Source of the DNA: Candidatus Saccharimonadota bacterium
Lineage (GTDB): Bacteria; Patescibacteriota; Saccharimonadia; Saccharimonadales; UBA4665
DNA: 64,000 nucleotides
Direction of reading: 5' to 3'
Assembly: GCA_050436805.1 (NCBI GenBank)
Contig: JBNQGE010000023.1
Coordinates: 10,606-74,605, forward strand
Shown here: positions 26,084 through 53,478 of the stretch, in pieces
Numbering within the stretch: position 1 is the stretch's first letter
How the letters are laid out: the number at the start of each line of letters is the position of its first letter
Position numbers and translations under genes: made by a program
Notes under the pieces: generated by a model
Databases searched by the model: none
Told to the model about the DNA's origin: nothing
Seen by the model: the letters and a program-made list of their open reading frames with translations, nothing else

Positions 26084-26117
26084 ATGGCGAAAGGTTAGCG
26101 GTGTCCTGCGGGACGGA

Positions 26118-26711
26118 TCAGGACGGAAGCTGGGTAAGCGCGTCGGCGATGTCACCGAAGAGGTAGACCCGCTGTGTGCTCTCGGACCCATTGACGACCA
26201 CCTGGTCGGTGTCGCCCACGTTCTGTAGCTCGGGGATCTCCTGGGCACCGATCTTGCGGTACAGGTGGATCGAGTTCGAACCCATCGCGGCAGTACGGAA
26301 CGCGTAGTGCATGTCGCCGCGATGGCAGATGGTGAGCATCCGATGGCGGACCAGCTCGTAGGCGATACCACGACCGCGATGGGTGTTAATCACGCCCAGC
26401 TCAGACATGTACCAGGTCTTCTGCAGGTCTCCGGTGTAGTGCTCCGAATCGCTGAGAAACCTCTGCACCTCGTCCGGCGCCTTGAGAACAGGCAGGGCGC
26501 AGCCGAAGCCGACGACCTTTTCGTTCTCGATTGCCAGGATGACGATGCCGTCCTCGACGTGAGGGTGCCAGACGTGGTCAAGCACGTCGTCGTCGCTGTA
26601 CTGCTCGTTGTAGGGTGGACCGCCGAAAGCCTCCTGGTAGGCCCGAATGAAGCCGAGGCGGTCACTGGGAAGGGTGGTTTCGTCGCTGAGAACAGGCAGA
26701 TACCTGGTCAA
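26118..26711 (-). CDS. GNAT-family N-acetyltransferase (GC-rich)
   Basis: The acetyl-CoA motif-A region ..LGVINTHRGRGIAYELV.. is present. The gene overlaps the upstream gene by 4 nt. Confidence 0.65.
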   Translation of the reverse strand: MTRYLPVLSDETTLPSDRLGFIRAYQEAFGGPPYNEQYSDDDVLDHVWHPHVEDGIVILAIENEKVVGFGCALPVLKAPDEVQRFLSDSEHYTGDLQKTWYMSELGVINTHRGRGIAYELVRHRMLTICHRGDMHYAFRTAAMGSNSIHLYRKIGAQEIPELQNVGDTDQVVVNGSESTQRVYLFGDIADALTQLPS

Positions 26712-27466: not shown

Positions 27467-27751
27467 GATCGTGCTCCTAACTTTTTTGTCTTGATTTGGC
27501 TAACCTAGCCGCCGTAATTTTAGCATGGATGTCAATGCATACACAAGCATAGGGGTTTTCCAAAATACTGCCCAGCTTACGCTCATTTTATAATTCCTAT
27601 AAGTATATACTAATGGCATATCTGCGCTATTGTAATTGTCGTAAATTTGACTTATACCCATTTTAATTTATAATTTCGCGCATGGTTCATTGAGTCAACC
27701 GACTCAGTACATTGAGAACCATAGCAGATTGAGAGAGGAACAAACACAGTC

Positions 27752-34429: not shown

Positions 34430-34600
34430 CCCTGCAGTGACCACAAAACGTGCCGCTGATACTTTTGCTTGCATTGGTTCTCGTCCTCCGTCAGCCGAAC
34501 AAAAAGAAGTGTCCGAGCAGTTGCTGCCTGGGCGCTTCTTTGTTAGTCCTGTCTGGATCTACGTTCGAATTTGTAGTAGAGGTCAATCCTCTACAGAGGT
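34430..34600. repeat. Junction module copy 'a' (degenerate): conserved spacer, long hairpin and family-1 site
   Basis: Homologous to 42100-42250. The hairpin AAAAAGAAGTGTCCGAGCAG-TTG-CTGCCTGGGCGCTTCTTT is at 34501-42. The site is TGTTAGTCCTGTCTGGATCTACGTTCGAATTTGTAGTAGAGG. Confidence 0.65.
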
Positions 34601-34609
34601 AAAGTATTG

Positions 34610-35020
34610 TTACTTCAAATAGCCAAGTTTTTGGAACAGGATTCGAGATGGAGGAACAATATCGTACGACGGCAGATCTTCGGGTTCGACCCATTCAATC
34701 TTTTCAATTCCTTCGGCAGGTTGGATTGCACCGCTCACGTATTCGCACTCAACGTCCAGATAAACAAAGAATTTCTCGATGCCGTCAAGGTCGTTCTTAA
34801 CTTCTGTATCCCAGGATATTTTGTTTTTGATAGCTACGTGTACACCGGACTTCGCGAGCACTTCGTCAATGATGGCCTGGTCAGGGTCAGCGCTGGAGGT
34901 AGCTTCGGCACCAAATATGTACCATGTTTCTTTGTAGGGCGGAGAGCCAGCAGGCTTTTTGCGCATTAAAATTGCACCATCTTTTTTCACGACGCCGACA
35001 ATAAGTACTTTTGTTTGCAT
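34610..35020 (-). CDS. Nudix-fold protein with a degenerate Nudix box
   Basis: 136 aa. ..FGAEATSSADPDQAIIDEVLAKSGV.. occupies the Nudix-box position but lacks several of the Glu residues. Confidence 0.55.
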   Translation of the reverse strand: MQTKVLIVGVVKKDGAILMRKKPAGSPPYKETWYIFGAEATSSADPDQAIIDEVLAKSGVHVAIKNKISWDTEVKNDLDGIEKFFVYLDVECEYVSGAIQPAEGIEKIEWVEPEDLPSYDIVPPSRILFQKLGYLK

Positions 35021-35077
35021 AGTGCAAGTATACCAGATACTTCGGACCAGCCAGGTAAAGTGCGTTATTATAAGAGG

Positions 35078-35410
35078 ATGAATTTCACTCGAGTCAAAAT
35101 CACCACCACTGTTCCCTTAGAAAATGCGGATGCCGTGCGCCACGCCCTTGGCGAAGCTGGAGCTGGTGTCATCGGCAATTACAGTTTTTGTAGCTTTTCG
35201 GTGATTGGTAAGGGCTGGTTCATGCCTAATGAAGATGCAAATCCCCATATTGGTTCAGCAAATGTGCTCGAAGCAGTTGAAGAAGAAAGAGTTGAGGTTG
35301 TTTGTGATCGCAAAAACGCCAAGCAAGTAATAGTTGCACTAAAAGCGGCACATTCGTACGAGGAAGTTATTGTAGACATCACGCCACTTATCGACGAGGA
35401 TCAATTGTGA
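35078..35410 (+). CDS. Stand-alone NIF3/YqfO-type PII-like insert-domain protein
   Basis: ..AGAGVIGNYSFCSFSVIGKGWFMPNEDANPHIG..RVEVVC...ALKAAHSYEEVIVDITPL matches the insert domain of NIF3-family proteins. The start is placed at ATG 35078. Confidence 0.6.
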   Translation: MNFTRVKITTTVPLENADAVRHALGEAGAGVIGNYSFCSFSVIGKGWFMPNEDANPHIGSANVLEAVEEERVEVVCDRKNAKQVIVALKAAHSYEEVIVDITPLIDEDQL

Positions 35411-35465
35411 AAAATGTCCTAATTTTGAGCACAGCGATTGGCTTGCCGGGAGACGTGGCGAGGTC

Positions 35466-36092
35466 GTGAAGGATCAAGACAAGACCAGGGCTGCCTACGA
35501 CAACGTTGTTGAGCTATATGCTTCAATGTTTGCGAATCGGCTAGAGACACAGCCATTTTCACGAGCCATGCTCAATACTTTTACCGAGCTAGTACATGGA
35601 AATGGAAACCTGCGAGTAGCTGATGTTGGGTGCGGACCCGGAGATCTAACGGCCCTGCTGCGTGAGCTGGGGTTGGATGCGTTTGGACTTGACCTCTCGC
35701 CGGGCATGGTTGAGCATGCTCGGCGGGCCAATCCAACGTTGCAATTTGAGGAGGCACGAATGGAGGCTCTACCAGTCGAGAGTGGTACGCTCGGCGGTAT
35801 ACTAGCTCATTATTCAATGATTCATACCCATCCCGAAGAGCTGCCTGCGATATTCACCGAACAAGCACGTGTCTTGGCGCCAGGAGGGCTCATCTTGGTT
35901 TCGTTCTTCGGGACCGATCGAGCCGAGCCGGTTCAATTCGATCACAAGGTAGCGCCCGCCTATAGCTGGCCGATTGATCAGCTCGTCAAGTTACTGACTG
36001 ATGCTGGGCTCGTTACCTTTGCTCGACTGATCCATGATCCAGATTCTGAGCGAGGATTTCTTGATGCTCATGTGCTAGCCCGGCTCAGGTAG
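35466..36092 (+). CDS. Class I SAM-dependent methyltransferase
   Basis: Motif I VADVGCGPGDL. GTG start. Confidence 0.7.
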   Translation: MKDQDKTRAAYDNVVELYASMFANRLETQPFSRAMLNTFTELVHGNGNLRVADVGCGPGDLTALLRELGLDAFGLDLSPGMVEHARRANPTLQFEEARMEALPVESGTLGGILAHYSMIHTHPEELPAIFTEQARVLAPGGLILVSFFGTDRAEPVQFDHKVAPAYSWPIDQLVKLLTDAGLVTFARLIHDPDSERGFLDAHVLARLR

Positions 36093-36186
36093 TTTGAACT
36101 TTGTAGCTAATGACTATGCAAAAGCCCTCAGTCTCATCAGTGTGTGATGAATGTGACCGAGGGCGTCAGCACCGTGCAGCGAGACC

Positions 36187-36633
36187 TCAGATGAGGCCGC
36201 GGAGATACTGGAAGAAGAGCTGACCCGGGCCACGATTCCACAGGATGACAGCCTGGATGGTGACGCAGACGTCAGCGGGAAGGCCATTGGCCCGATGGAA
36301 GAAGCCACGGAGGTCGACGCTGCTGGCCGGCCTTGTGTTTGGGATGTACACCTGGATGAGGTAGGGCTGGTTCCGGTTGATCGAGGGGGTGACCTCCTCC
36401 ATGACTCGAAGAGAGTCAAAGAGTCGGTTGCCGAACTTAGTCGTAGGGCCGCCACCCAGATCGGGGCTGACGCGTCCGAAGACACCCTGTCGCTTGACCG
36501 CCATCGGCAGTCCCACGATGAAATGTGTACCGTCATCGTGGACTTCGGCAGACATCACCTGGAAGTTGGAGTTGCCGTCGCACAACTGCTGTCTTGCTTC
36601 TTCTCGCAGCATTGCTTGGGTGCTGGTTTTCAT
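36187..36633 (-). CDS. GC-rich hypothetical protein
   Basis: The start is placed at ATG 36633 (MKTSTQAML..), with GGAG 9 nt upstream. The fold is not recognisable. Confidence 0.45.
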   Translation of the reverse strand: MKTSTQAMLREEARQQLCDGNSNFQVMSAEVHDDGTHFIVGLPMAVKRQGVFGRVSPDLGGGPTTKFGNRLFDSLRVMEEVTPSINRNQPYLIQVYIPNTRPASSVDLRGFFHRANGLPADVCVTIQAVILWNRGPGQLFFQYLRGLI

Positions 36634-36745
36634 GGTTGTACTCCAAAGTCGGAGGAACATGACAACAATATTTATACCATATAATTAACATATCATCAAA
36701 TATACTAGAAAAGGTACGTTGCCCACACTCGGAAAAATGAAATAG

Positions 36746-36814
36746 TCCAAGCAGCAACTGCTCGGACGCTTCTTTTGACAGTCTGCCTGAACTAAGTTCG
36801 AATTTTATGTCATC
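36746..36814. repeat. Junction module copy 'b': 5'-truncated hairpin plus family-1 site
   Basis: TCCAAGCAGCAACTGCTCGGACGCTTCTTTTGACAGTCTGCCTGAACTAAGTTCGAATTTTATG is nearly identical to 42178-42240. Confidence 0.75.
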
Positions 36815-37268
36815 TGCTATACAGGCCAGCCAGCTTGGCCGAAGTAATAATGTACGTTTGAATTGCCGCCTCAATGGTCGCTCGAGGTGCAGTAGCAGCC
36901 AAATCCAACATCCTGTCCAGTGCGTATAGCTCAAAAATGTAGCGATGCATACCTGTTCCTTTTGGGGGCATAGGACGGATATAGTTTGTTTTCTTCATGT
37001 CATTCATTCCTATAATGGCGCCCTGGGGAATGGCGCCTTCGGCGATGGTAGCAGTATTGGAGTGAATATTCCACACAGCCCAATGGAGGAAATCTTTCTT
37101 CCTAGCGTCAGGATCGTGCATAAGTAGCACAAGGCTAGCCGTTCCCTCGGGTACATCGTTAATAATAAGTGGAGGGTTTTGATTCTTACCCGTAAAACCA
37201 TAGGGCTCAGGAATCTGACTCATATTAGTAAAAACAGGACTCGTAAGCTTCATTGTGCTCCTTTTCAT
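36810..37268 (-). CDS. YbhB/YbcL (PEBP/Raf-kinase-inhibitor-like) family protein
   Basis: LVLLMHDPDA, HWAVWNI and GMHRYIFELYALD. Confidence 0.75.
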   Translation of the reverse strand: MKRSTMKLTSPVFTNMSQIPEPYGFTGKNQNPPLIINDVPEGTASLVLLMHDPDARKKDFLHWAVWNIHSNTATIAEGAIPQGAIIGMNDMKKTNYIRPMPPKGTGMHRYIFELYALDRMLDLAATAPRATIEAAIQTYIITSAKLAGLYSR

Positions 37269-37439
37269 ATCTCTACTCTAGAGTAATCTTGAATTTATTT
37301 CACATTGTAAAAACATCTACAAGGTAGGGCGATAATTTTAGATATTCAGATAATAGGGGACATAGCGTACGGACAACCCAGAGTGGTACCATAGGCCTTA
37401 AGGCGAAGAAGAAATCATGCAAAACAAGGAGGTACTGTA

Positions 37440-37970
37440 ATGACGCAGTCTAATCTCTCATGCGAGACACAGCAACTATGTGCGATTGCCGCGACCGGGC
37501 AATATCTCTTTCACGGAACGAACCTTGAGTACCCTGTGCTATATTCATCGATACCTCATTGGAATTATGAGGGCAACACCTACCCGGATAGTGACATTCC
37601 GGTTGTCTGCGCCATGGACAAGCCTCTCGTGCCTACCTTTATGGGGCTCATCGCGGTAACCAACGCACGTCCATGTCGATCTCTTACGAACGAATTGGGC
37701 GGTAAGGATTTCGCCGTGCCTACTCGTAGCCGTGAGTCTTTGGAGCAAGCCGTGGGCTTTGTGGCGATACTCTCTCGTGATCTATTTGAGCTTGTCGAAG
37801 ACATCGAAGTACCAGCAGGTTACTCTGGTCCTCGCCCTGGGGGCAGGCGAGCGGAGTGGCGTAGTTATGCGGGGAGCTTGGAGCCGGTTGGTTACGTATC
37901 TGTTACGTTCGATGACTTTTTGGGACTTCTGTCAACTGCGCCCGAGTCGACTTTTAGGTTCATGGATTAA
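37440..37970 (+). CDS. Hypothetical protein
   Basis: 176-aa ORF with a GGAGG SD upstream. Confidence 0.5.
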   Translation: MTQSNLSCETQQLCAIAATGQYLFHGTNLEYPVLYSSIPHWNYEGNTYPDSDIPVVCAMDKPLVPTFMGLIAVTNARPCRSLTNELGGKDFAVPTRSRESLEQAVGFVAILSRDLFELVEDIEVPAGYSGPRPGGRRAEWRSYAGSLEPVGYVSVTFDDFLGLLSTAPESTFRFMD

Positions 37971-38424
37971 TGCCCATCTTCTTAATTCGGTAGTTGGTAA
38001 ACGTACCCTGTCTAATCGAGCGACCAATCTCGCGTACCACTTTTGGTTTATCACTTTGCATGCGTACGATAAAGGCCTCACTGGCAAGAGAATCTGCATC
38101 GTGCTCGAGGCCCCATAGTGTCAACTCTATGAGCATTGGGATGAGTTGCTCGCCTTTTTCTGTGACAGTATAGATGTATTGGTTCCTTAGTGTGAGGTCA
38201 CGCCGTTTCTCAATAATACCTTGCTGTTCTAGCTTTTTGAGCCGATCACTGAGCACATTAGTCGCTGCTTTTTCCTGTGGCGTGAAGTCACTGAAGCGGG
38301 TACGGTGATAAAAAATAATGTCACGCAAAATGAGTAATGACCATTTGTCACCAAAAACATCCAGCGCAAAACTGATCGGACAGCTGGACCTACGCTTAGA
38401 TCTATTTTCATCGATTTCCTGCAT
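37960..38424 (-). CDS. HxlR-family transcriptional regulator
   Basis: CPISFALDVFGDKWSLLILRDI. Confidence 0.75.
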   Translation of the reverse strand: MQEIDENRSKRRSSCPISFALDVFGDKWSLLILRDIIFYHRTRFSDFTPQEKAATNVLSDRLKKLEQQGIIEKRRDLTLRNQYIYTVTEKGEQLIPMLIELTLWGLEHDADSLASEAFIVRMQSDKPKVVREIGRSIRQGTFTNYRIKKMGINP

Positions 38425-38503
38425 CTCAGCATCTTAACATCCTTGTCTTTTGCAAGCAACCTGTCTATACTCCGAAGTGACTATAAAAAGCAAAGGGTGA
38501 AAA

Positions 38504-38923
38504 ATGAGCATACATATTGATTGGGTCGCGGTTGTTGTAGCGCTAGTGGCGAGTATGGTTCTGGCAAAGACTTGGTTCACGCCAAAGGCATTCGGTGGTC
38601 CATGGCGAAAGTATACGGGCATTACTTCGGCAGATTCCAAAAAAGCCGGGAAGCGACCGATTATATTGACGCTGTTTGCAAACATCCTAACAATAGTAGC
38701 GCTTGCCGCCACGATTAATATAAGCGCTGTGTTCTTCCAAAATAACTCTGTTTGGCTCTCTTCGGCTGTTGGCCTTGCCTCCTGGCTAGCCTTTTCAGCA
38801 ACAACGCTTGCCACTCATAACGCCTTTGAACAGAAGCCGCAAAGATTAACCCTCATTAATAATGGATACCAGTTCGTCCTATTTCTAGCCACGTCAGTAA
38901 TCATTGGTTGGTTTGGCGCATAA
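38504..38923 (+). CDS. DUF1761-like membrane protein
   Basis: Four TM segments and an N-terminus ..WVAVVVALVASMVLAKTWFTPKAFGGPW. Confidence 0.55.
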   Translation: MSIHIDWVAVVVALVASMVLAKTWFTPKAFGGPWRKYTGITSADSKKAGKRPIILTLFANILTIVALAATINISAVFFQNNSVWLSSAVGLASWLAFSATTLATHNAFEQKPQRLTLINNGYQFVLFLATSVIIGWFGA

Positions 38924-38924
38924 G

Positions 38925-39254
38925 ATGGCCTACAATGAACCGCGAACTGAGCAAGTGCGTATCTTGCTTGCAAATATCCCTAACGTTACAGAGAAGAAAA
39001 TGTTTGGCAGCGTAGGCTTCATGGTCGATGGCAAGTTATGCCTAGGTGTGGGCGACCATGCCGACCATAACATGATGGTGCGCATCGGCATTGAAAAGTA
39101 CGGAGAAGCGCTGCAGCACCCTGGCGCATCGCCTGCAGTAATGCGAGGACGAGAACAACCGGGCTATGTGTTTCTGACTAACGAGGCAATTCAAACTCAA
39201 AATGATTTAGAGTACTGGGTAGATTTGGCCTTGGAATATAACAGGAGTTTGTAG
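38925..39254 (+). CDS. TfoX/Sxy N-terminal-domain protein
   Basis: ..VTEKKMFGSVGFMVDGKLCLGV.. The start is placed at ATG 38925, directly after the upstream stop. Confidence 0.55.
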   Translation: MAYNEPRTEQVRILLANIPNVTEKKMFGSVGFMVDGKLCLGVGDHADHNMMVRIGIEKYGEALQHPGASPAVMRGREQPGYVFLTNEAIQTQNDLEYWVDLALEYNRSL

Positions 39255-39321
39255 ATATGGCTCACCAATTGCATAACGTAGTTTTCGGGCTAGGCGATGA
39301 TGGAAATGGTATGATAACACC

Positions 39322-39609
39322 ATGATTATGACTATTATCCTCAGTTTCCTGGCAGGTGCCTGGTTTGGAAACGGCATACCGCATTTTGTGCGAGGCATCA
39401 CCAGACAAAACTATCCTTCAATGTTAGGCAACAAACCTATTCCTAACCTTATTGCTGGATGGATGGCCCTAGCAACAACACCACTATGGTTATATTGGTC
39501 GCAGGCAGCTAGCTATCCGGTACAGGCATGGGTTGCGGGTGCCTTCGGAGTTCTTGCTATTGGTTTATTCCATGCTGGCCCTGGTGCATTTGGTAAGCAA
39601 GATAAGTAG
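39322..39609 (+). CDS. Small membrane protein
   Basis: 95-aa ORF with 3 hydrophobic segments. Confidence 0.45.
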   Translation: MIMTIILSFLAGAWFGNGIPHFVRGITRQNYPSMLGNKPIPNLIAGWMALATTPLWLYWSQAASYPVQAWVAGAFGVLAIGLFHAGPGAFGKQDK

Positions 39610-39634
39610 AGTAAATTAACGCATAAGAGGGTCT

Positions 39635-40066
39635 ATGTCAGATTACGTTCAACCAACTCATAAGTTTGTAGCAGTTTTGAACAAAAAGATTCCCGAAGGT
39701 CGCTTAATGAACGCCTTAGCTCATGCTACTGCCGGTTTAAGCGCCACGTACCCCGAAGTTGCCGCAATGCGCTTTGATAATTACGAGGATAAATCAGGCA
39801 ACATACATCAAAGCATATCTGACAACCCATTCATTATTCTCCGTGCTGATAACTCCAACAAATTGCGGGCGCTGCGTCAGCAACTCGTCGAGCAGGACAT
39901 CTGCTTCACTGATTTTGTAGATACGATGACAGAAGGCACATACACTGAGCAGCAGGAACGTACCAAGAATACGAACGAAGAAGACCTAGAATACTTTGCC
40001 GTTGTTATGTTTGGTGAAAATGAAGTACTCAATGTGCTCAATAAGAAGTTTTCTCTCTGGCACTAG
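39635..40066 (+). CDS. DUF2000-like protein
   Basis: 143 aa. The call rests on general resemblance from memory, and there is an AGAGGG SD. Confidence 0.45.
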   Translation: MSDYVQPTHKFVAVLNKKIPEGRLMNALAHATAGLSATYPEVAAMRFDNYEDKSGNIHQSISDNPFIILRADNSNKLRALRQQLVEQDICFTDFVDTMTEGTYTEQQERTKNTNEEDLEYFAVVMFGENEVLNVLNKKFSLWH

Positions 40067-40142
40067 CCTACTAGTGAAGAGATGAGAAAATTTGGCCTGA
40101 AACTTCTGTCGCAATATCAGTATCTAGGATATAGTGAGTCTT

Positions 40143-40902
40143 TTAAGGTTTTTCTGGCAACTCAAACTCAGCCCAGCAGAGGTAGTGGTCAGACTGTGTC
40201 TGCACAATGTTCGAATCTGTAAGCCGCCATTCTGGGCTATACAATATATGGTCAGGATGGGTACCATGGCTTAGTTGATATATTCGGCAACGCGTCCTTC
40301 AGGCTAAACTTCTCGAGTAGAAGCGGGAATGCATTTGATAAGTCATGTTGATTGAAGTCAGCTGGAAATAATAATGGACGGCTTAACGCGCCCGCAAGAA
40401 GAGTGTCTATACCGTGACCCAGATCTTTTCCCAAGCCCGTATCGTATTGTAGGCCAAAAGCACCGAGCGGCTCGGTGTGTATATTTGCAACTGTAAAGCT
40501 ATTGAATGTTACGACCTGTGCGTAGCGGTCATAGGGCGGAACAACCTTACCACTATGTTGAAATTTTAACTCAAAAGTTGGATGAGGTAGCAAAAGTGAC
40601 TGCTCAGTCGTAAACGGTATTCTGGAAATTATAGCGGTGGTGAGCATATACGTTGAATCAATATGGGACGGGCAGCCAGGTGATTCGGCAACATAAGACA
40701 TATCTAACGAGTTTGCTAGGAGCTCTGCAAGACTATTGTGCGAATTGGCATGCGATTCCTGCAGGCACACAATATCTAGTTGCAATGTCTGCAATTGTTC
40801 CGCAAAATAATCGAGTTCTTCTTGCGTACCATAATCAAATCGCTCCATAGAGAGCATTTTGCGTGCTCCTGCGATATTCCATGTGCCAACACGTATTTTC
40901 AT
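40143..40902 (-). pseudogene. Endonuclease/exonuclease/phosphatase (EEP) family gene, frameshifted near the 3' end
   Basis: The ORF 40252..40902 ends ..STKPWYPS*. The +1 frame continues HPDHILYSPEWRLTDSNIVQTQSDHYLCWAEFELPEKP* and carries the catalytic C-terminal (S)DH motif. Confidence 0.65.
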
Positions 40903-40956
40903 TCCTCAATAATACTACAAAATGCCATACCTTTTCGGTTAGAACTTCCGAGGAGC

Positions 40957-40988
40957 CTCTCAGGGCTAAGTTCGAACTTTGAGAGAGG
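40957..40988. repeat. Site copy 'c': near-perfect palindrome around AAGTTCGAAC
   Basis: CCTCTCAgggctAAGTTCGAACTTTGAGAGAGG. Confidence 0.6.
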
Positions 40989-41027
40989 AGGCCTAGGAAA
41001 AATAGCCGGTGATGCTATAATAAATGC

Positions 41028-41848: not shown

Positions 41849-41952
41849 AAGTAATCCTTGTGGGTGATGACAACCAAAATCCCAGCCCCAACGAGATACT
41901 GCCAAGCAAAATAGTCAAAGTGATACCTGTGTCTGATTATTAGATACGCAGC

Positions 41953-42097
41953 ATAAGTTCGATCTTTGCATGTTTGGGGTGGTGACCAGGCTCGAACCCA
42001 AATCAACACGGTGGAATAGAAAGACCCGAGTCATTTCTGGCTCGGGCTTTGAGGCGTGACCTCCGTTATTCTAGGCTGGCAGGGGAGACAGGACTCG
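41953..42097. repeat. Left ~145-bp direct repeat: family-2 site, tRNA-His-like 3' fragment, small hairpin and 21-nt tRNA-Trp 3' fragment
   Basis: It aligns with 53279-53423 at roughly 75-80% identity by eye. TGGCAGGGGAGACAGGACTCG (42077-97) is identical to the 3' end of tRNA-Trp (53403-23). TGGGGTGGTGACCAGGCTCGAACC is at 41975-98. Confidence 0.8.
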
Positions 42098-42250
42098 CCG
42101 CCGTGTGACTGCAAACGTGCCACTGGCACTTTTGCTTATATTCGTCCTCGTCCTGTGCCAGCCAATAAAAAGAAGCGCCCAAGCAGCAACTGCTCGGACG
42201 CTTCTTTTGGCAGTCCTTCAAGAACTAAGTTCGAACTTATGACAGAGGTG
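42098..42250. repeat. Junction module copy 'e': spacer, long hairpin (42167-42208) and family-1 site (42208-42250)
   Basis: AAAAAGAAGCGCCCAAGCAGCAACTGCTCGGACGCTTCTTTT followed by TGGCAGTCCTTCAAGAACTAAGTTCGAACTTATGACAGAGGTG. Confidence 0.8.
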
Positions 42251-42263
42251 TATACTTTAGAAT

Positions 42264-42935
42264 ATGGTCAAATATCCGGAATATAGCAAAGAACTCACGC
42301 AGCTTTTGAGTGAAGACCAAGAAGTCTGGAAATCTTTCTGGCGTGATAATTTTGATAGACAGAATACATCCGAGTTCCACAAGGAATTTGAAAAGGTGCG
42401 AGCCGAGCAGCAAGGTCAGTCAAAACGAATGTTGGAAATTCTGCGTCAAGTCGATAGGCCTACGTTGACTAACATCGGTGCCGATGCAGCACAAGCCGTG
42501 TCAATTCTGGCGCTGCATGATTCACTTGATGTATTACGTTCAGTGCTCGATATTTTTATAGACTGCTATGAGAAAGACAAGACAGACGCATACTGCCAGG
42601 CGATTCCGTCGATGACAGATAGAGTAAGGATTTTGGAGCGCAAACCTCAAGTGTTCGGTACACAGTGGGAACTCGATGAGCATAATTATCCATTTCTACC
42701 GACAGTTGAGGATTTTGAACATGTTAATGAGCGGCGTGAAGCATATGGCATAGAGCCGCTGCGGTGGCCAAAGTCGCTCGCCATTCCAGAAGATCGACAA
42801 CCCTGGCTCAAAAAGCCGTTGTCCGGATCAGTTATGCGCGATATTACTGACAAAGAATTCCAGCAAAAATATCAGAGCTATCTAGCCAATCCTAATCGTT
42901 CGAAAAGTGAAATTGAAGGTGGCGTTAACTTATAG
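42264..42935 (+). CDS. Hypothetical protein
   Basis: 223-aa ORF with no motif I recognise. Confidence 0.5.
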   Translation: MVKYPEYSKELTQLLSEDQEVWKSFWRDNFDRQNTSEFHKEFEKVRAEQQGQSKRMLEILRQVDRPTLTNIGADAAQAVSILALHDSLDVLRSVLDIFIDCYEKDKTDAYCQAIPSMTDRVRILERKPQVFGTQWELDEHNYPFLPTVEDFEHVNERREAYGIEPLRWPKSLAIPEDRQPWLKKPLSGSVMRDITDKEFQQKYQSYLANPNRSKSEIEGGVNL

Positions 42936-43336
42936 TCACTAAGTTTGTTTATGGGCACCCATTCCAATGTGGCAAGATCATCTGTCGGCTGCAGCTTTAT
43001 GTCTTTCGCCTCCACTAATAGGTCAACACGATAAACATTGAACTTCATATTGCAAAGTACGTGTTCGCCGGTCTCCTTGAGTGTCTTTTCGGTTTGGCCA
43101 GAGCCTTGGTCGTCAGCCAGAGCCACACTGGCGCCAGAAATATCAATGCCGACTTCTTCTAAAATCTCGCGTTGCAGAGCAATTTCTTTTGTCTCGTCTT
43201 TTTCGACACCACCGCCCGGGATGTGCCAACAATCAACATACACACCACCACTTTTGGGATCTTTCATACCCATAAGTAGCTTGCCGTCTTTGGAAAAGAT
43301 GAGCGCAGATACGATTTCGCGGTCGATTGTTTTCAT
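42878..43336 (-). CDS. Nudix hydrolase
   Basis: Nudix box GGGVEKDETKEIALQREILEEVGI. The start is placed at ATG 43336 (MKTIDRE..), 4 nt after the upstream stop. Confidence 0.8.
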   Translation of the reverse strand: MKTIDREIVSALIFSKDGKLLMGMKDPKSGGVYVDCWHIPGGGVEKDETKEIALQREILEEVGIDISGASVALADDQGSGQTEKTLKETGEHVLCNMKFNVYRVDLLVEAKDIKLQPTDDLATLEWVPINKLSDYKLTPPSISLFERLGLAR

Positions 43337-43340
43337 GGCT

Positions 43341-43835
43341 TTATGATACAGGTTTGTACTCCTCAACAAATGCCTGGCCATATGCTACATCAAGTTGTAG
43401 CGTTAATTCTTTAGGCTCCCCTCGCACGATTGGAAGCATTGATCGTATTGGTCCCCAGTGAGTTACAACGGCCACGGAATCATAGCCGAGAGTAGCAACA
43501 TGCGCTAAGGCCGAGCGCAATCGCTCTTCCATTTGCTGCCAGGATTCGCCGTTTGGCGGCACAGAAGTATACCTTTCTTCGGTGGTAAGTTTCTCGAGTT
43601 CGGCAGCAATTTGTGGCCATTCCCAATCAGACCAATCGCCAAAATTTCGCTCTTCAAGACCTTGTTGAGCAATACTTGGCGCATTTAAGGCAAGCGATAG
43701 GGCTTCTGCTGCAAATACTGCACGAGATTGTGTGGAATGAACGACAGCTCGCACCTCTTCATTACGACACGTTCCAATAACATGAGCAAGCTGCTCTTGG
43801 CCATTTGGGCTTAGTGCATCTTCATCACCGGGCAA
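43341..43835 (-). CDS. Histidine phosphatase family protein lacking a canonical start for its catalytic N-terminus
   Basis: The in-frame upstream sequence encodes (I)KLVIIRHPETNREAGLPGDED.., which carries the RH catalytic motif. It begins at ATC 43884, preceded by GAGGAG. No ATG, GTG or TTG lies before ATG 43835. Confidence 0.55.
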   Translation of the reverse strand: MPGDEDALSPNGQEQLAHVIGTCRNEEVRAVVHSTQSRAVFAAEALSLALNAPSIAQQGLEERNFGDWSDWEWPQIAAELEKLTTEERYTSVPPNGESWQQMEERLRSALAHVATLGYDSVAVVTHWGPIRSMLPIVRGEPKELTLQLDVAYGQAFVEEYKPVS

Positions 43836-43878: not shown

Positions 43879-44124
43879 TTGATAGCTGGCTCCTCGTCGC
43901 ATTTAGTAAACAGGCGTATTCAGTTAATTATACCAGTTTTCACCTTAGAAGTTCGAACATCGCATATTTGGGAGGGTGACATTATAGCGCTAGAACCCGA
44001 GAGGATAGAGTCCTTGCGGCTCATCCTTGAAAGTGAACAGGATAGATCTGTCACCTATGACGAAGCATTAGAGATAGGGCGATCACTAGTACGCTTCTTC
44101 AAGGCTCTCGCCGAAGAATCGTAG
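43879..44124 (+). CDS. Small ORF upstream of the recombinase (possible accessory or directionality factor); true start uncertain
   Basis: The most plausible product is the ~47 C-terminal residues (..IIALEPERIESLRLILESEQDRSVTYDEALEIGRSLVRFFKALAEES), preceded by GGGAGGG and an ATT codon. The longer ORF runs through repeat 'f'. Confidence 0.3.
   Translation: MIAGSSSHLVNRRIQLIIPVFTLEVRTSHIWEGDIIALEPERIESLRLILESEQDRSVTYDEALEIGRSLVRFFKALAEES
43943..43995. repeat. Site copy 'f' (family 2) immediately upstream of the recombinase module
   Basis: AAGTTCGAACATCGCATATTTGGGAGGGTGAC..CTAGAACCC parallels AAGTTCGATCTTTGCATGTTTGGGGTGGTGAC..CTCGAACCC at 41955-41998. Confidence 0.6.
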
Positions 44125-44181
44125 AGCAGTCCACTCAGGTGCGCTCATACCTAACATACAATAATTACAAAGGAGAGAAGG

Positions 44182-45771
44182 ATGGGGCAAACTAACGCTG
44201 TCATACTTGCGCGCGTATCCAGTAAGGCGCAGGAAGATGAAGGATACTCACTTGATTCACAAGTGAAGTTGCTTACAGGCTACTGTCAAACAAAAGGGTT
44301 CAAAGTCGTTAAAGTCTTCAAGATTGCTGAAACAGCGTCAAAGCAGCAAAGCCGTAAGGTTTTCACTGAAATGTTGCATTACATCTCAAAGAACGATATC
44401 TACCACCTAGCGGTCGAGAAGACTGATCGATTTACGCGTAATATGCGGGATGCTGTCGCAATTGACGATTGGCTAGAACAAGATGAGGAACGACGCTTGC
44501 ATGCCGTCAAAGAAAATCTACTTGTTCATAAGAATGCTAAATCTGACGTTAAGTTTATGTGGAACATTCACTTATCAGTTGCCAAGAAGTACACGGACAA
44601 CCTACGTGAAGAGGCTATGAAAGGATGGGCTGAAAAGCTTGCACAAGGTTGGCTGCCAGCACCTCCGCCACCAGGATACATTACAGTCACTCGAAGTGGT
44701 AAGCGCATCCATATCATTGATAAGGCTACTGTTAGTATTATGCGTAAAGTATTCCGAATCTATCTTGAGCCTAACCACTCAATACTCACAATTACAGAGT
44801 TCATGAAAAACAACGGTGTAGTCACACGTAAGGGGCGGCCATGTGGCAAAAGCTATGTCCACAAAATATTGAGTAATCCATTTTATATTGGTGTTAACCA
44901 TTTCGATGGCAAGGACTATCCAGGTGCGCAAGAACCGCTTATTAGCAAAGAACTATTTAACGCGGTACAAAAGAAATTGCATAACAAGCAGCCAATACTA
45001 CGAGCGCGCCATAACCCGGTACTTAAAAACATCATCCGCTGCCAAAATTGCGGCGCAGCCGTTACTTGGGAGCGTCACAAAGAACGCTATTATGGTGCAT
45101 GCCAGCGCAAACAACCGACATGCAAGGGATTAAAGTTCCTGCGTGAAGATCGTGCCGAGGAGCTAGTTATGGAGACACTCAAAAAGTTTGTAAGCCCGTC
45201 GCAGGAGATCATTGCCTGGACGAGCGAGGCAATCCGAGCAGAGTCACAAAACGATATTCAATACTACGAGCAGACTGCCGCGCTTATCAACAGCAAGCTT
45301 AGTCGCATCGATCTCATGGATGAAACGTTATACGACGACAAGTTGGCTGGTGACATCACCAAAGAACGCTACGAAGCCAAACACGAGCGGCTCTCGAGCG
45401 AGAAGGCTAGTTTGCTCGATCAACTAGGCAAGCTCGAGGAACAACAAAAATCAGACTTTGAAGGCGGTCTAACGATACTAGAACTATCCCAAAAAGCCGC
45501 AGAAATATACGCAAGCAAGGTTCCAGAACAAAAACGCGTGATAATAACCGAACTCTTCGAAAAACTAACATCGAACGGCGACGCTTTGTCTGTTACGTAC
45601 ACAAAACTCACGAATGCAATCGCCCAAAAGACAGCAGAAACGGTTCAATTCTTGGAAGGACAGAAAATGACTAACCGAACTTTTGAAAAAGCCTTCGCTA
45701 CATCTGTTAGCGAAGGCAATTCCGAGATTATAAATCAATTATGTCCAATATGGCAGTCCTGTCTGAACTAA
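44182..45771 (+). CDS. Large serine recombinase (integrase)
   Basis: N-terminal resolvase domain (AVILARVSSKAQEDEGYSLDSQ), a recombinase domain, the Cys cluster CQNCG..CQRKQPTC and a coiled-coil tail. AGGAGAG SD. The stop codon TAA 45769-71 lies inside repeat 'g'. Confidence 0.85.
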   Translation: MGQTNAVILARVSSKAQEDEGYSLDSQVKLLTGYCQTKGFKVVKVFKIAETASKQQSRKVFTEMLHYISKNDIYHLAVEKTDRFTRNMRDAVAIDDWLEQDEERRLHAVKENLLVHKNAKSDVKFMWNIHLSVAKKYTDNLREEAMKGWAEKLAQGWLPAPPPPGYITVTRSGKRIHIIDKATVSIMRKVFRIYLEPNHSILTITEFMKNNGVVTRKGRPCGKSYVHKILSNPFYIGVNHFDGKDYPGAQEPLISKELFNAVQKKLHNKQPILRARHNPVLKNIIRCQNCGAAVTWERHKERYYGACQRKQPTCKGLKFLREDRAEELVMETLKKFVSPSQEIIAWTSEAIRAESQNDIQYYEQTAALINSKLSRIDLMDETLYDDKLAGDITKERYEAKHERLSSEKASLLDQLGKLEEQQKSDFEGGLTILELSQKAAEIYASKVPEQKRVIITELFEKLTSNGDALSVTYTKLTNAIAQKTAETVQFLEGQKMTNRTFEKAFATSVSEGNSEIINQLCPIWQSCLN

Positions 45772-45793
45772 GTTCAAACTTTTAACAGAGGTG
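45751..45793. repeat. Site copy 'g' (family 1), overlapping the recombinase 3' end
   Basis: TGGCAGTCCTGTCTGAACTAAGTTCAAACTTTTAACAGAGGTG. Confidence 0.75.
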
Positions 45794-47848: not shown

Positions 47849-48253
47849 ATGGATGCTGAAGCCACCTGGTACCGAGTAAGCACCAAGGCTGTCGTCATTA
47901 AAGCCAGCAAGCTATTGTTTGTCAAAGAAGGTACCGATCTTTGGGATCTGCCAGGTGGCGGGCTTGAACATAACGAAACCACAGTTGAAGGCTTAGCTCG
48001 TGAAGTACAGGAAGAGCTTGGTGTGCATGTCAAGACTAATAGTGACTTGCCGATCTTTGTTTGGAAGACCTACGATGAGGCGAATAAACGGCCGATCATC
48101 GTCCTGGGTTATAAAGTCGAATTAGCTTCAGAAGATTTTGTGCTGCAAGAGCCAGTTCGTGATATTGCCTTTATTGATCCAGCTGCACTGACCACAAATG
48201 ATTTTGAACCGTACGTCCGTGACTTTTATCGCAACATCCTAAAACTGGTATAG
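47849..48253 (+). CDS. Nudix hydrolase
   Basis: GGGLEHNETTVEGLAREVQEELGV. The start abuts the upstream stop. Confidence 0.8.
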   Translation: MDAEATWYRVSTKAVVIKASKLLFVKEGTDLWDLPGGGLEHNETTVEGLAREVQEELGVHVKTNSDLPIFVWKTYDEANKRPIIVLGYKVELASEDFVLQEPVRDIAFIDPAALTTNDFEPYVRDFYRNILKLV

Positions 48254-49787: not shown

Positions 49788-49826
49788 TTAGTCCTCCGGT
49801 AACTACGTCGAACTTTTAACAGGAGT
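49788..49826. repeat. Site copy 'h' (degenerate family 1)
   Basis: TTAGTCCTCCGGTAACTACGTCGAACTTTTAACAGGAGT. Confidence 0.55.
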
Positions 49827-50587: not shown

Positions 50588-50989
50588 TTAATCAGCCCAC
50601 TTTATAGTTGCGTCACGGTCAAATAAGATTTTAATAGTATGCTCTTTCTTGCTAAAGACAAAGTTGCGGCTATGCTCCTGTAAATCCAGCTCGATCACTT
50701 GCTCTTCAGGAAAACCACGCAGGTGGAATGTGTGTTTTTGGAGCTTAGGATCAGTAGAGTAGATGCCTCGGGATTTCTCCCAGTCAATTGCTCCAACTTT
50801 GAGAAGGGTATTGCGAAACGCGTCGATACACTGCACAAAAGCCCCATCTTCAATGTCTAGCCATACATCAATGTCAGAATGTTCATTGTTGCGTCCCGTT
50901 GCCCACGAGCCTTCCAGCCACATCGCATGTATTTCGGGGATAGTCTGAACATCGGGTAGAATCTTCTGGATTATATCGAACAGTGTCAT
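50588..50989 (-). CDS. Nucleotidyltransferase-domain protein (ANT/Lnu-like minimal NTase)
   Basis: GSWATGRNNEHSDIDVWL (GS-x9-11-DxD). Confidence 0.7.
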   Translation of the reverse strand: MTLFDIIQKILPDVQTIPEIHAMWLEGSWATGRNNEHSDIDVWLDIEDGAFVQCIDAFRNTLLKVGAIDWEKSRGIYSTDPKLQKHTFHLRGFPEEQVIELDLQEHSRNFVFSKKEHTIKILFDRDATIKWAD

Positions 50990-51011
50990 GTTTACATGAT
51001 AACAGATCGAG

Positions 51012-51530
51012 TTAGCTAGTGCTGGGTGTCTTCAAATTGACGGTTTTTCTAATAAACGTCACGCTTTGCTCGACTGAATTGGTTTCGGGAATGGTAAATT
51101 CAAAGTCATAGCCCAATGATTCCACCGGCTGATACCATTCGCGCATTTGCTCAGCACTAAAAGCATGGCGCAGTTCACGTGTTTGGTGTCGACGTGCAGT
51201 TTCTTCAAATGAGACATCAAAGTTAAAAATAAAGTTATCCTGCGGATGATACTTTGCAAGAATTTGCGCCAAATAGTTCCGGTTCCGCTCGTGGGCGAAG
51301 AAAATACTATCCCAAATAACGTCAAAATCATGATCAAGGCAATACTTCACATTAAGCGCCATTAAGTCGCCGAGCGCTTCGCCATATTGGCCCTTAGGGA
51401 AGAGCATATGTTCACGGTAATAGTCACCGGCAATGATGGCCGTTTTGCGAGTGGTGTCTTTGACAAGCTCGCGCGCGACGGTGCTTTTGCCGGAACCAGA
51501 ATTGCCACGCAGAATAATGAGCTTAGACAT
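51012..51530 (-). CDS. P-loop kinase (AAA_33/zeta-toxin-like small-molecule kinase fold)
   Basis: Walker A LRGNSGSGKST. Confidence 0.65.
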   Translation of the reverse strand: MSKLIILRGNSGSGKSTVARELVKDTTRKTAIIAGDYYREHMLFPKGQYGEALGDLMALNVKYCLDHDFDVIWDSIFFAHERNRNYLAQILAKYHPQDNFIFNFDVSFEETARRHQTRELRHAFSAEQMREWYQPVESLGYDFEFTIPETNSVEQSVTFIRKTVNLKTPSTS

Positions 51531-51555
51531 GGCACTATAGTAGCATTTCCGAAGT

Positions 51556-51723
51556 AAAAGTTCGAACGTTGCACATCTGGTGGAGAGACAGGGCTCGAAC
51601 TTGATTTTACAGAGGCGGAATAGAAAAATCCGAGCAGTTGATGACTCGGATTTTGAGGTCTGACCTCTGTCATTCTAACTTGGCAGTCCTTCAAGAACTA
51701 AGTTCAAACCTGTAACAGAGGTG
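51556..51723. repeat. Composite junction 'i-j': family-2 site, foreign tRNA-like 3' fragment, small hairpin, then TGGCAG fused directly to a family-1 site
   Basis: AAAAGTTCGAACGTTGCACATCTGGTGGAGAGACAGGGCTCGAAC..CCGAGcagttgatgaCTCGG..CTTGGCAGTCCTTCAAGAACTAAGTTCAAACCTGTAACAGAGGTG. Confidence 0.75.
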
Positions 51724-52597: not shown

Positions 52598-52849
52598 CTA
52601 TTCAATTCCTGTATAGTGACAGTACTTCTTGAATTCTGTTTGGTCAGCCGGTTCTAGACCTGCATGTTTACCATCCAAGTTATAGTAAAACCCTTGCTTT
52701 GCCTTAATGGGCTGCGTGCATTGGTAAATAAAGAGCTGCTTATCTTCATAGGTGGTAAGCTTCTGCTGGGCGCGGGCATAGGATATTAGGATACCGATTA
52801 GTGATAGGCTCGTTGCGGCTATTACCGTAATAATTATTCGCCTGGCCAT
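52598..52849 (-). CDS. Small single-TM protein
   Basis: The start is placed at ATG 52849 (MARRIIITVIAATSLSLIGILI..). Confidence 0.4.
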   Translation of the reverse strand: MARRIIITVIAATSLSLIGILISYARAQQKLTTYEDKQLFIYQCTQPIKAKQGFYYNLDGKHAGLEPADQTEFKKYCHYTGIE

Positions 52850-53259
52850 TTGGCTTCTACGTGCTGAGTTAAAGTCTCGACTAGCCTCTGCATATTTGGC
52901 GGCAATTGCAAGTTGGACATTTCTTGCAGACTGAAGAAGCGTAGCTCTTGGCATTCGTCAGATGCAGTAAAATCAAGGCTCTTCAGCTCAATCTGGTAAA
53001 TGATATTTGCAATATAAACATTACTGGATGCCTTGTGTGCTGTAACAAAGTACTTTGGCTCAGGCCAGACTTTTGTCACAGTCAGATCAGTCTCTTCCTG
53101 GACTTCACGTTTGAGGCAGGCGATCGGATCTTCGCCGTGATCAAGGCCGCCGCCAAGCATATCCCATGTTCCGTCGCTTTCACGGGCCAGCAAGACGCGA
53201 TCTTGATCGTCGATGACGATTCCCTTGACACTGACACGGTAGTAGCAGGCTTCATTCAT
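52834..53259 (-). CDS. Nudix hydrolase
   Basis: GGGLDHGEDPIACLKREVQEETDL. The start is placed at ATG 53259, because the longer ORF runs into the direct repeat. Confidence 0.8.
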   Translation of the reverse strand: MNEACYYRVSVKGIVIDDQDRVLLARESDGTWDMLGGGLDHGEDPIACLKREVQEETDLTVTKVWPEPKYFVTAHKASSNVYIANIIYQIELKSLDFTASDECQELRFFSLQEMSNLQLPPNMQRLVETLTQHVEAKWPGE

Positions 53260-53278
53260 GCATACATGATAACAGATT

Positions 53279-53402
53279 GGGTTTGAACTTTGCATGTTTG
53301 GGGTGGTGACTAGGCTCGAACCAGATTCTACAGGGGTGGGAATAGAAAAATCCGAGGTTGTTACAACTCGGGTTTTGAGGTTTGACATCTGTTATTTCTT
53401 CG
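53279..53402. repeat. Right direct repeat: family-2 site, tRNA-His-like 3' fragment (53299-53322) and small hairpin, abutting tRNA-Trp
   Basis: See 41953..42097. The hairpin AAAAATCCGAG-gttgttacaa-CTCGGGTTTT probably also terminates tRNA-Trp transcription. Confidence 0.8.
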
Positions 53403-53478
53403 TGGCAGGGGAGACAGGACTCGAACCTGCGACACTCGGTTTTGGAGACCGATGCTCTACCAACTGAGCTACACCCCT
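53403..53478 (-). tRNA. trnW: tRNA-Trp (anticodon CCA), CCA end encoded
   Basis: Manual cloverleaf:
- acceptor AGGGGUG/CUCCCCU (one U-U mismatch);
- D arm GCUC-AGUUGGUA-GAGC;
- anticodon arm UCGGU-CUCCAAA-ACCGA;
- T arm GCAGG-UUCGAGU-CCUGU;
- discriminator G73 followed by CCA. Confidence 0.85.

Follow-up and report, generated by a model that had tools for sequence, protein, structure and literature searches.

The CCA end of tRNA-Trp as the probable attachment site of a large serine recombinase family in Saccharibacteria

Introduction

The cassette chromosomes of staphylococci and enterococci (SCCmec and related staphylococcal cassette chromosome, SCC, elements) encode Ccr serine recombinases, sit at the 3' end of the conserved gene rlmH (orfX) and form composite islands, and their tandem stacks hold recombinase-less cassettes with small accessory cargo between repeated copies of the integration site. 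ICESt3-type elements, which use a tyrosine integrase and long identical cores, have been demonstrated experimentally to undergo accretion and to mobilise cis-mobilisable elements (CIMEs) in cis. Saccharibacteria are epibionts with genomes of less than 1 Mb. Here we analyse a 64,000-nucleotide stretch of a Candidatus Saccharimonadota genome (GenBank assembly GCA_050436805.1, contig JBNQGE010000023.1, positions 10,606 to 74,605 of the forward strand; hereafter the window), in which a gene for a large serine recombinase (LSR) lies in an island beside the tRNA-Trp gene, among sites that share the hexamer TGGCAG. We consider it probable that TGGCAG is the attachment-site crossover core of a Saccharibacteria-wide LSR family, and that serial exchanges at this core stacked modules head-to-tail into an island of ~19 kb (34.4-53.4 kb), which was later eroded.

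Stacking beside tRNA genes is also documented for the tycheposons of Prochlorococcus, where successive integrations push older elements outward and leave partial tRNA copies and decayed remnants in tRNA-adjacent islands (bioRxiv 10.1101/2020.12.28.424599). Tycheposons are overwhelmingly of the tyrosine-recombinase kind, with partial-tRNA flanking repeats and often with replication genes, and the enzyme is a large serine recombinase in 27 of 937 elements (bioRxiv 10.1101/2020.12.28.424599). In the attachment sites of serine integrases, the distal motif bound by the zinc-ribbon domain is 5 bp nearer to the centre of attB than to that of attP, and the minimal attB is ~10 bp shorter than attP (PMC3783163).

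Unrelated sequences meet at TGGCAG

The single tRNA gene of the window, identified with ARAGORN and Rfam, is tRNA-Trp(cca) at 53403-53478 on the minus strand, and the TGGCAG at its edge (core, 53403-53408) is the reverse complement of tRNA positions 71-76, the encoded CCA included. A base-level alignment places the same hexamer, perfectly conserved, at five junctions (42077, 42208, 45751, 51681 and 53403), where the left arm is a spacer (S), a terminator module (X) or the 3' end of the LSR gene, and the right arm is tRNA-Trp, a 15-nt tRNA fragment or a site of a family termed F1. At 53403 spacer S3 is joined to the intact tRNA gene, whose 3' arm GGGAGACAGGACTCGAACC is a B'-type half-site with TCGAAC at +13 to +18. 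At 42077 spacer S1 is followed by TGGCAG-GGGAGACAGGACTCG and then by unrelated DNA, and the 21 nt that begin with the hexamer are identical to 53403-53423. Spacer S2 is attached at 51681 to F1c (TCCTTCAAGAACTAAGTTCAAACCTGTAACAGAGGTG; core and F1c, 51681-51723, + strand), a P'-type half-site; X stands to the left of F1a at 42208 (42208-42250, + strand); and the 3' end of the recombinase gene is fused to F1b at 45751 (45751-45793, + strand), which makes an attP-type junction. The initial annotation had listed four contexts of the hexamer, namely a spacer before the intact tRNA, before a tRNA fragment and before an F1 site, and element sequence before an F1 site, and all four are found exactly as it described them. 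As a bare hexamer TGGCAG is not rare in the window (52 matches against 38 expected), so the signal lies in the context of the junctions and not in the hexamer.

We compared these junctions with those of seven further loci from Saccharibacteria (L numbers denote loci other than the window), and in every pairwise comparison unrelated blocks of homology change over exactly at TGGCAG. The joint of S with tRNA-Trp recurs at L010 11683 and L016 9468, that of S with the 15-nt fragment at L001 7206, that of S with F1 at L001 5943 and L010 402, and that of X with F1 at L008 6412 and at L016 4334 and 8086. L001 joins a module X' to the tRNA at 7379, and the LSR end, which the window joins to F1, is followed by an F1-like arm at L012 2774 and L015 3572. 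In L002 (11570) and L021 (2228) an intact tRNA-Trp gene follows the LSR 3' end, ...AATCAATTAYGTCCWATA, with TGGCAG as the point of fusion. The tRNA arm of L021 is identical to that of the window, and the window and L002 are homologous in their DNA from 43972 to 45756 (81% over 1.78 kb), up to the last G of TGGCAG and no further. Because the arms are unrelated up to the hexamer and 6 bp cannot support homologous exchange, we see no economical reading other than site-specific recombination within TGGCAG. The earlier proposal that exchange at or next to TGGCAG had produced attB-, attP- and hybrid-type junctions is supported by the predicted attR-type joint of LSR with tRNA-Trp, present in L002 and L021, and further by the recurrence of S-TGGCAG-F1 and S-TGGCAG-tRNA in L001, L010 and L016. 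For the window, the predicted LSR|tRNA junction would read AATCAATTATGTCCAATA-TGGCAG-GGGAGACAGGACTCGAACC, and the predicted circle junction of S3 with F1b would read TCTGTTATTTCTTCG-TGGCAG-TCCTGTCTGAACTAAGTTC.

An explanation of a more general kind is homologous recombination, duplication or gene conversion among S repeats and tRNA-like fragments, with TGGCAG as a mere conserved tRNA boundary. The S copies are indeed 72-79% identical to one another over ~125 nt, and one joint, a microhomology at 43972, is clearly not site-specific; but 6 bp is too short, unrelated arms change at the same hexamer in many combinations and genomes, and the palindromic 42- and 52-bp architecture of the sites is left unexplained. 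We therefore regard this explanation as highly improbable.

The half-sites have the spacing of attB and attP

In six of six tRNA arms TCGAAC, the T-loop sequence, begins at +13 from the core, and in ten of ten F1 or P'-type arms, those of the distant loci L012 and L015 included, TCRAAC begins at +18. Because the motif, presumably that of the zinc-ribbon domain, is displaced by exactly 5 bp, F1 is best read as an attP-type (P') half-site and not as a decayed tRNA end. The initial annotation had seen a degenerate tRNA 3' end in F1, a resemblance that does not hold up when it is scored by local alignment against shuffles and random window 40-mers: the similarity of the two arms is at chance (P 0.05-0.85), F1 and the tRNA arm share only TGGCAG and TCRAAC, and F1 resembles the tRNA-like fragment inside S to a modest degree (P 0.002-0.4).

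The motif on the opposite side follows the same rule. GTTYGA lies at -18 in seven of seven sites of a type termed K|S-int and in the S* arms of L016 and L001, and at -19 in two K|frag15 sites of L008, so that GTTCGA-N12-core-N11/12-TCGAAC describes an attB-type palindrome of ~42 bp. In the S arms the GTTYGA motif is placed at -23, exactly in two copies and with one mismatch in two others, and S together with F1 forms GTTTGA-N17-TGGCAG-N17-TCAAAC, an attP-type palindrome of ~52 bp. The site sizes deduced here, ~42 bp for attB and ~52 bp for attP, agree with the ~40 bp, ~50 bp and 5-bp offset looked for in a serine integrase system.

The K|S-int sites lie within the spacers. Every S copy opens with a palindrome of 41-42 bp, GTTCGA-N12-TGGnnG-N11-TCGAAC (41957-41997, 51560-51600 and 53281-53321; truncated in 43946-43981), which places an attB-type geometry inside each module; the palindrome resembles a tRNA-Trp 3' end in its right arm, and its cores have drifted to TGGGGT, TGGTGG and TGGGAG. 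The copy at 53281-53321, which reads GTTTGA-N12-TGGGGT-N11-TCGAAC, is attB-like and palindromic.

The homology breakpoints bound the exchange to the 6 bp of TGGCAG, the symmetry centre of which is G3|C4. Core position 5 covaries with the target tRNA, being A in Trp-type and T in Gln-type sites, the attP-type site of L013 included, and this covariation favours C4-A5 as the crossover dinucleotide, where the exact cut would most likely fall. We also considered AAGTTCGAAC as the crossover in place of TGGCAG and rejected it, since the homology breakpoints are at TGGCAG and GTTCGA/TCGAAC is better explained as the distal half-site motif.

The LSR and its homologs

By its domains and motifs, and by a length within the ~450-700 aa of such enzymes, the intact open reading frame (ORF) at 44182-45771 (+ strand, 529 aa) is a large serine recombinase. 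It contains the catalytic Resolvase domain (PF00239, E 4.2e-19, residues 6-156), the Recombinase domain (PF07508, 2e-15) and Zn_ribbon_recom (PF13408, 28.8 bits against a cut-off of 25.3), the integrase family PHROG 95 matches it at 4e-71, and the motif ILARVSSKAQ is kept in every homolog inspected. Only the N-terminal catalytic domain matches a solved structure by sequence, that of the TP901-1 integrase (E 1.5e-6). The homologs, more than 1,200 in number, are mostly ~60% identical and annotated from Saccharibacteria; an exact look-up found the sequence of the window LSR not on record, and literature searches combining Saccharibacteria with serine recombinases or integrative elements returned nothing describing this LSR family or system. 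The window protein is 92% identical to that of L002 (P0001) and 85% identical to that of L021, and we infer that it catalyses the exchanges at TGGCAG.

The gene and the core are physically linked. The reading frame of the LSR runs across TGGCAG and reaches its stop codon (45769-45771) within F1b, and because the ORF (45751-45771; homologs P0001-P0108) crosses the crossover point, integration would swap the C-terminal tail of the enzyme. Tails derived from antisense tRNA are found in at least 13 of 18 long-form homologs, and ends from a P'-type arm in 3 of the 18. The tail comprises four residues (SCLN) over F1 and ~20-30 residues from antisense tRNA (...WQGWRDSNPRPSVLETDALAN) in homologs, and most LSR relatives of 496 aa stop ~70 nt before the tRNA instead.

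In L002, L003, L005 and L013, the LSR is the terminal gene at the edge of a unit with Replic_Relax, a helix-turn-helix (HTH) protein and a DUF87/TrwB-type ATPase, which by its gene content looks like a conjugative or mobilisable element. Transfer and replication genes are thus linked to the recombinase in these four loci and absent in the window, and the definition of an integrative conjugative or mobilisable element fits the four loci and not the window. The LSR relatives of L003 and L005 abut or overlap tRNA-Gln, with the core TGGCTG. In L012, L013 and L015 the LSR end is joined to a non-tRNA arm and more element genes follow directly, which is the arrangement expected of attP. In L013 (GCA_040383985.1, a 19.5-kb contig) the core before the non-tRNA arm is TGGCTG, Replic_Relax lies upstream, and PLD, RadC and a TrwB-like ATPase lie downstream; this locus may represent a tRNA-Gln-targeting element in an unintegrated or circular form. 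A search by hexamer context within 10 kb of sequence did not find the far end of the L002, L003 and L005 elements.

Directly upstream of the LSR, five loci share a conserved ORF of 45-65 aa (window 43946-44181; L002 9785-9949; L021 438-602; L012 1068-1205; L013 6903-7097), which has no match in Pfam or PHROG and, given its conserved position, is a candidate directionality factor or regulator. In L012 a tRNA-Met-like gene (970-1044) ends 24 nt before the pair of small ORF and LSR, so that a tRNA stands on the 5' side of that module too. The window copy of the small ORF has no ATG and its frame ends at 44124. At the left edge of the LSR module (43946-44181, + strand), a truncated K|S-int (43946-43981) is fused to the small ORF through a 10-nt microhomology, GAGGGTGACA. 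The module measures just 1.8 kb from its left edge at 43972, and the transfer genes of L002 and L021 are gone; compared with those loci, this edge is the footprint of a microhomology deletion at GAGGGTGACA that took away the ATG of the small ORF and most of the LSR-bearing conjugative-type element.

A stack of modules between 34 and 53 kb

The island stands out by a G+C content (GC) of 0.44-0.49 at 34-53 kb, against about 0.51. In a profile search of the window, all copies of S and F1 have one orientation (+ strand) and are confined to the island (34-53.4 kb). S3 (53276-53402, + strand), which abuts the tRNA, contains a terminator hairpin, GTTTGA at -23 to -18 and the internal K|S-int. S1 with its core (41953-42082, + strand) is the distal copy; a third copy, S2 (51555-51680, + strand; 72-74% identical to S1 and S3, with GTCTGA at -23 to -18), and the truncated copy at 43946-43981 were found with nhmmer. 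F1 is represented by three strong copies (E about 1e-13) and by four decayed copies at 34545, 36777, 40956 and 49790, each on the + strand and inside 34-52 kb.

Outward from the tRNA, the order is C1, C2, C3, the mini-module frag15+X, S1 and then the decayed sites, with at least three decayed and five perfect cores head-to-tail over 34.4-53.4 kb. Module C1 (51687-53402, 1.7 kb, - strand) consists of F1c, an alpha/beta hydrolase, a small membrane ORF, a NUDIX gene and S3, with no recombinase according to Pfam; its NUDIX+S part and the S|F1 junction are conserved in L001. C2 (45757-51680, 5.9 kb) comprises F1b, about nine cargo genes, S2 and, internally, one decayed F1-like site (49788-49826). 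C3 (42214-45750, 3.5 kb) comprises F1a, a DUF6624-like gene, a NUDIX gene, a histidine phosphatase gene (Pfam) and the truncated recombinase element. Beyond S1, cores have decayed: an older X module with an F1-like site lies at 34440-34583 (+ strand; core decayed to TTGTTAG), and further F1-like sites lie at 36745-36806 (core TGACAG) and 40952-40990. Decayed cores are thus found at 34541, 36777 and 49790, and decayed sites of the X|F1-like type at 34541, 36777 and 40956; those from 34440 to 40990 mark the older, distal part of the stack.

The initial annotation had proposed an 11.3-kb sub-island with the recombinase, bracketed by direct repeats of ~145 bp. The repeats are real (145 nt each, 41953-42097 and 53279-53423; 117 of 149 columns or 78.5% identical, S1 belonging to the left member) and the LSR does lie between them, but the interval is not one element: by its internal sites it is a stack of at least three modules, a 125-bp mini-module and a truncated recombinase element. 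Such repeats recall a tRNA island made by a tyrosine integrase, in which crossing over in the T-loop or 3' end would duplicate 21-145 bp as attL and attR and the LSR would be a passenger. The bracketing of 11.3 kb by the 145-nt repeats agrees with this, as do the 21-nt and ~25-nt tRNA 3' fragments that start in the T-loop and an indel in L001 that has 21-nt flanking direct repeats. Yet a Phage_integrase domain (Pfam), the mark of a tyrosine recombinase, is found in no sufficiently large ORF of the 20-54 kb interval; the swapped arms (LSR end, S and X; F1 and tRNA) have no similarity beyond 6 bp, unlike those of long-core tyrosine systems; the LSR ORF abuts the core in at least five genomes; and a 5-bp offset of the motif is characteristic of serine integrases. 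A tyrosine-integrase origin thus has only a slight chance of being right.

The indel just mentioned is an extra module of frag15 and X', ~170 bp long (166 bp; 172 bp with one core), that L001 has exactly between S and tRNA, and because its flanking repeats are 21-nt direct repeats, the crossover cannot be placed inside them. In the window its counterpart is 11 kb away, between S1 and F1a. This counterpart, the 125-bp mini-module frag15+X (42083-42207, - strand), comprises the 15-nt tRNA-Trp 3' fragment, the T-arm-like CAGGACGAG, a hairpin and a terminator that adjoins the next core, and it is conserved in L001, L008 and L016. Copies of X are seen in four genomes (window 42098-42207 and 34440-34540; L001 7228-7378; L008 5292-5387 and 6302-6411; L016 4224-4333), with a common order of terminator hairpin adjoining the core, CAGGACGAG, a second hairpin with compensatory base changes, and the 15-nt tRNA 3' fragment. 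CAGGACGAG resembles the 5' T-stem of tRNA-Trp, GTCGCAGGTTCGAG. X as a whole resembles a tRNA 3' third with a ~70-nt insertion in the T-loop and could be a scar or a small RNA; Rfam gave merely sub-threshold matches on 41900-42300, all on the terminator hairpin. A pattern search of viral contigs with F1 gave zero matches.

The terminators raise another explanation, in which F1, S and X are expression signals (terminators, leaders and the Shine-Dalgarno-like ACAGAGGTG) that are repeated because the cassettes share their regulation. S and X do have clean terminator hairpins directly downstream, in the tRNA sense, of the tRNA or of cargo operons, F1 ends in AGAGGTG 13 nt before an ATG at 42264, and a shared leader precedes the NUDIX genes. 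Such roles leave unexplained the fusion of the LSR end to F1 or tRNA, the fixed hexamer and the 5-bp offset, and F1b and F1c have no downstream gene on the + strand; as the sole account, expression signals are very unlikely, although the two roles are not mutually exclusive.

According to Pfam, the cargo of C2 consists of an EEP nuclease/phosphatase, an InPase-like protein, YbaK/tRNA_edit, NUDIX, a cytidine/dCMP deaminase, a methyltransferase, a nucleotidyltransferase and an AAA_33 kinase. The accessory genes of the island as a whole include three NUDIX genes, a histidine phosphatase, two EEP genes, a deaminase, YbaK, methyltransferases, a nucleotidyltransferase, a kinase and an alpha/beta hydrolase, a cargo biased to nucleotide and RNA house-cleaning. 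The three NUDIX genes are paralogs (42878-43381, 47849-48253 and 52834-53260), and in the window as in L001, L008 and L016 a NUDIX gene is the conserved neighbour of S/K. A leader, CATGnnTACATGATAACAGATyGrGTT, stands 5' of minus-strand cargo genes in the window (50986-51013 and 53256-53283) and 5' of the NUDIX genes in L001, L008 and L016.

The cargo between conserved sites differs in the window, L001, L010 and L016, and frag15+X occupies different slots. In L010 (1164-8340), the 11-kb module that S|F1 and S|tRNA delimit contains a gene for a PPDK/PEP-utilising enzyme in two halves, with an IS1595-family transposase gene (5017-5889) between them. Outside the island, GC rises to 0.54-0.61, well above the window mean, at 26001-29000, around the histidyl-tRNA synthetase gene (27752-29071).

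Assembly, erosion and present state of the stack

The combinatorial junctions, the linkage of LSR gene and core across several genomes and the 5-bp motif offset are direct observations, and from them we infer an order of events in which recombinase-less modules may have moved as units. The LSR gene lies at the very end of its element and reads across the core, its tail being encoded by the F1 arm in the attP state and by antisense tRNA in the integrated state. Full elements would integrate by recombination of attP (of the LSR|F1 type) with attB (the tRNA end), giving LSR|tRNA as in L002 and L021, and serial conservative exchanges at the tRNA-proximal TGGCAG would then stack modules that are each bounded by a core. 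Erosion would follow, with decay of the distal cores and with the microhomology deletion that cut the LSR-bearing conjugative-type element. The present state of the window, with LSR|F1, S|F1 and S|tRNA and no LSR|tRNA, could arise if an S|F1 circle recombined with a resident LSR|tRNA junction. Formally this would be attL x attR or attP x attR, and it would need a directionality factor or relaxed pairing, the latter likened to Ccr/SCC systems.

Several points weigh against this reading. Only ~8 related loci were examined, and several of them are homologous copies and not independent events. By motif geometry S acts as a P-type arm, so stacking would need non-canonical pairings; a junction of attL geometry, B-left|F1, was not found among the loci compared, and the LSR's own P arm (its coding 3' end) and the X arms have no GTTYGA motif. 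Conservative serine recombination cannot create tRNA fragments of 15-25 nt, so at least one other process contributed.

The remaining objections concern age and activity, and they bear on a rival in which the same serine-recombinase chemistry acted long ago and has since died out in this genome, so that the LSR would now be a relic and the junctions would be scars that became fixed and pass on by vertical inheritance. The right flank of the window is syntenic with a metagenome-assembled genome (MAG) of Candidatus Saccharimonadales (L001), and a substrate-binding protein that flanks the tRNA-Trp gene has a match of 100% identity in the annotation of a Candidatus Saccharibacteria MAG. The NUDIX-S unit that adjoins the tRNA and the S|F1 junction are common to the window and L001 at 72-83% identity, with a similar framework in L010 and L016; because this framework is shared with L001, the junctions from S|F1 to NUDIX-S|tRNA are old and not recent. 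Moreover, the attP-type junctions at 45751 and 51681 and the tRNA junction at 53403 are directly oriented and accompanied by an intact LSR ORF, but the assembly shows them un-recombined. The decayed cores at 34541, 36777 and 49790 and the truncated LSR element, with its small upstream ORF lacking a start, also speak for a fossil array. On the other hand, five cores are perfectly conserved, the content and order of modules differ between genomes, with frag15+X in different slots, and the LSR ORF is intact and 92% identical to that of a host whose tRNA-Trp and flanks are clearly different, which implies recent horizontal movement of the LSR. We give the fossil array an appreciable chance, though one well short of even. 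A search for empty sites turned up orthologs of the substrate-binding protein in L017-L020 and L022 that have neither an adjacent tRNA-Trp nor an array, so that the adjacency of tRNA-Trp and island is lineage-specific and these loci are unusable as empty sites.

The reading of TGGCAG as the crossover core of a Saccharibacteria-wide LSR family remains the one we favour. Both current activity of the LSR and mobilisation of recombinase-less modules in trans are unproven. A bolder extension, which we put forward tentatively and think rather unlikely, is a cassette-chromosome-like system of the candidate phyla radiation (CPR), in which modules of F1, cargo, NUDIX and S would be moved in trans by the LSR of a conjugative element and the end of tRNA-Trp would be a self-renewing landing pad. 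Circular modules would then carry the near-perfect 52-bp attP-type palindrome GTTTGA-N17-TGGCAG-N17-TCAAAC, and each would also bring along its internal 42-bp attB-type K|S-int. Such a system would need LSR pairings beyond attP x attB, or the small upstream ORF as a directionality factor.

Implications

The island offers a concrete mechanism for the gain and shuffling of accessory genes at one hotspot in the reduced genomes of Saccharibacteria. It also allows the attachment sites of a large recombinase family to be predicted purely from sequence: a likely attB of ~42 bp, whose centre is the CCA end of tRNA-Trp, and a likely attP of ~52 bp. The enzyme family and its host group are without a description in the literature searched, whereas tRNA hotspots of mobile DNA are themselves of a familiar kind. 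Short, defined serine-integrase sites are raw material for genome-engineering tools, those for Saccharibacteria included, a group that has become genetically tractable only recently (PMC12857230). If recombinase-less modules are mobile, the island would be a second, independent case of the SCC-type "cassette chromosome" strategy and a natural case for serine integrases that handle non-canonical site pairs; trans-mobilised modules and non-canonical pairings are possibly the new twists here. If the cassette-chromosome view is true, the tRNA-Trp landing pad would feed mostly nucleotide house-cleaning genes into ultra-small genomes.

Comparison with described systems

The large serine integrases of phages and integrative and conjugative elements (ICEs), of the A118/LI, Bxb1, phiC31 and TP901-1 type, have the same set of Resolvase, Recombinase and zinc-ribbon domains, also use short sites with a tiny shared core and need no long direct repeats, and have a distal half-site motif whose distance from the centre is 5 bp greater in attP than in attB (PMC3783163). 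The system described here differs from them in its target, the CCA end of a tRNA gene, and in its Saccharibacteria hosts; in an LSR ORF that crosses the crossover, with a tail that changes on integration; in a shared core of 6 bp where theirs is 2 bp; and in the coexistence of attP-, attR- and attB-type sites in one chromosome.

Integrons likewise array small, promoter-poor or leader-sharing cassettes at one site, and we considered and rejected an integron here: Pfam detects no IntI, there is no attI/Pc, and the sites are duplex-type palindromes of 42-52 bp at a tRNA end and not attC hairpins. CIMEs and ICESt3 likewise comprise non-autonomous, att-flanked modules in tandem with a recombinase-encoding element, an arrangement that is known here from sequence alone.

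GC and tRNA fragments had suggested a cyanobacterial tycheposon island, which we rejected as well, since synteny links the flank to a Candidatus Saccharimonadales MAG and the relatives of the LSR come from Saccharibacteria. The window island shares with tycheposons its outward stacking beside a tRNA, its partial tRNA copies and its decayed remnants, but most of its junctions share just 6 bp, its enzyme is an LSR and its host phylum is unrelated, so that it does not belong among them.

SCC-type islands likewise stack tandem elements at one site with integration-site sequence at each junction, a pattern that we find here. The likeness is an analogy and not membership: the target is tRNA-Trp and not rlmH, the LSR relatives are Saccharibacteria proteins, and they belong to a conjugative-type element with Replic_Relax and a TrwB-like ATPase. 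On the features compared, the window island is a serine-integrase element-and-island system at a tRNA gene, a member of neither the SCC nor the tycheposons.

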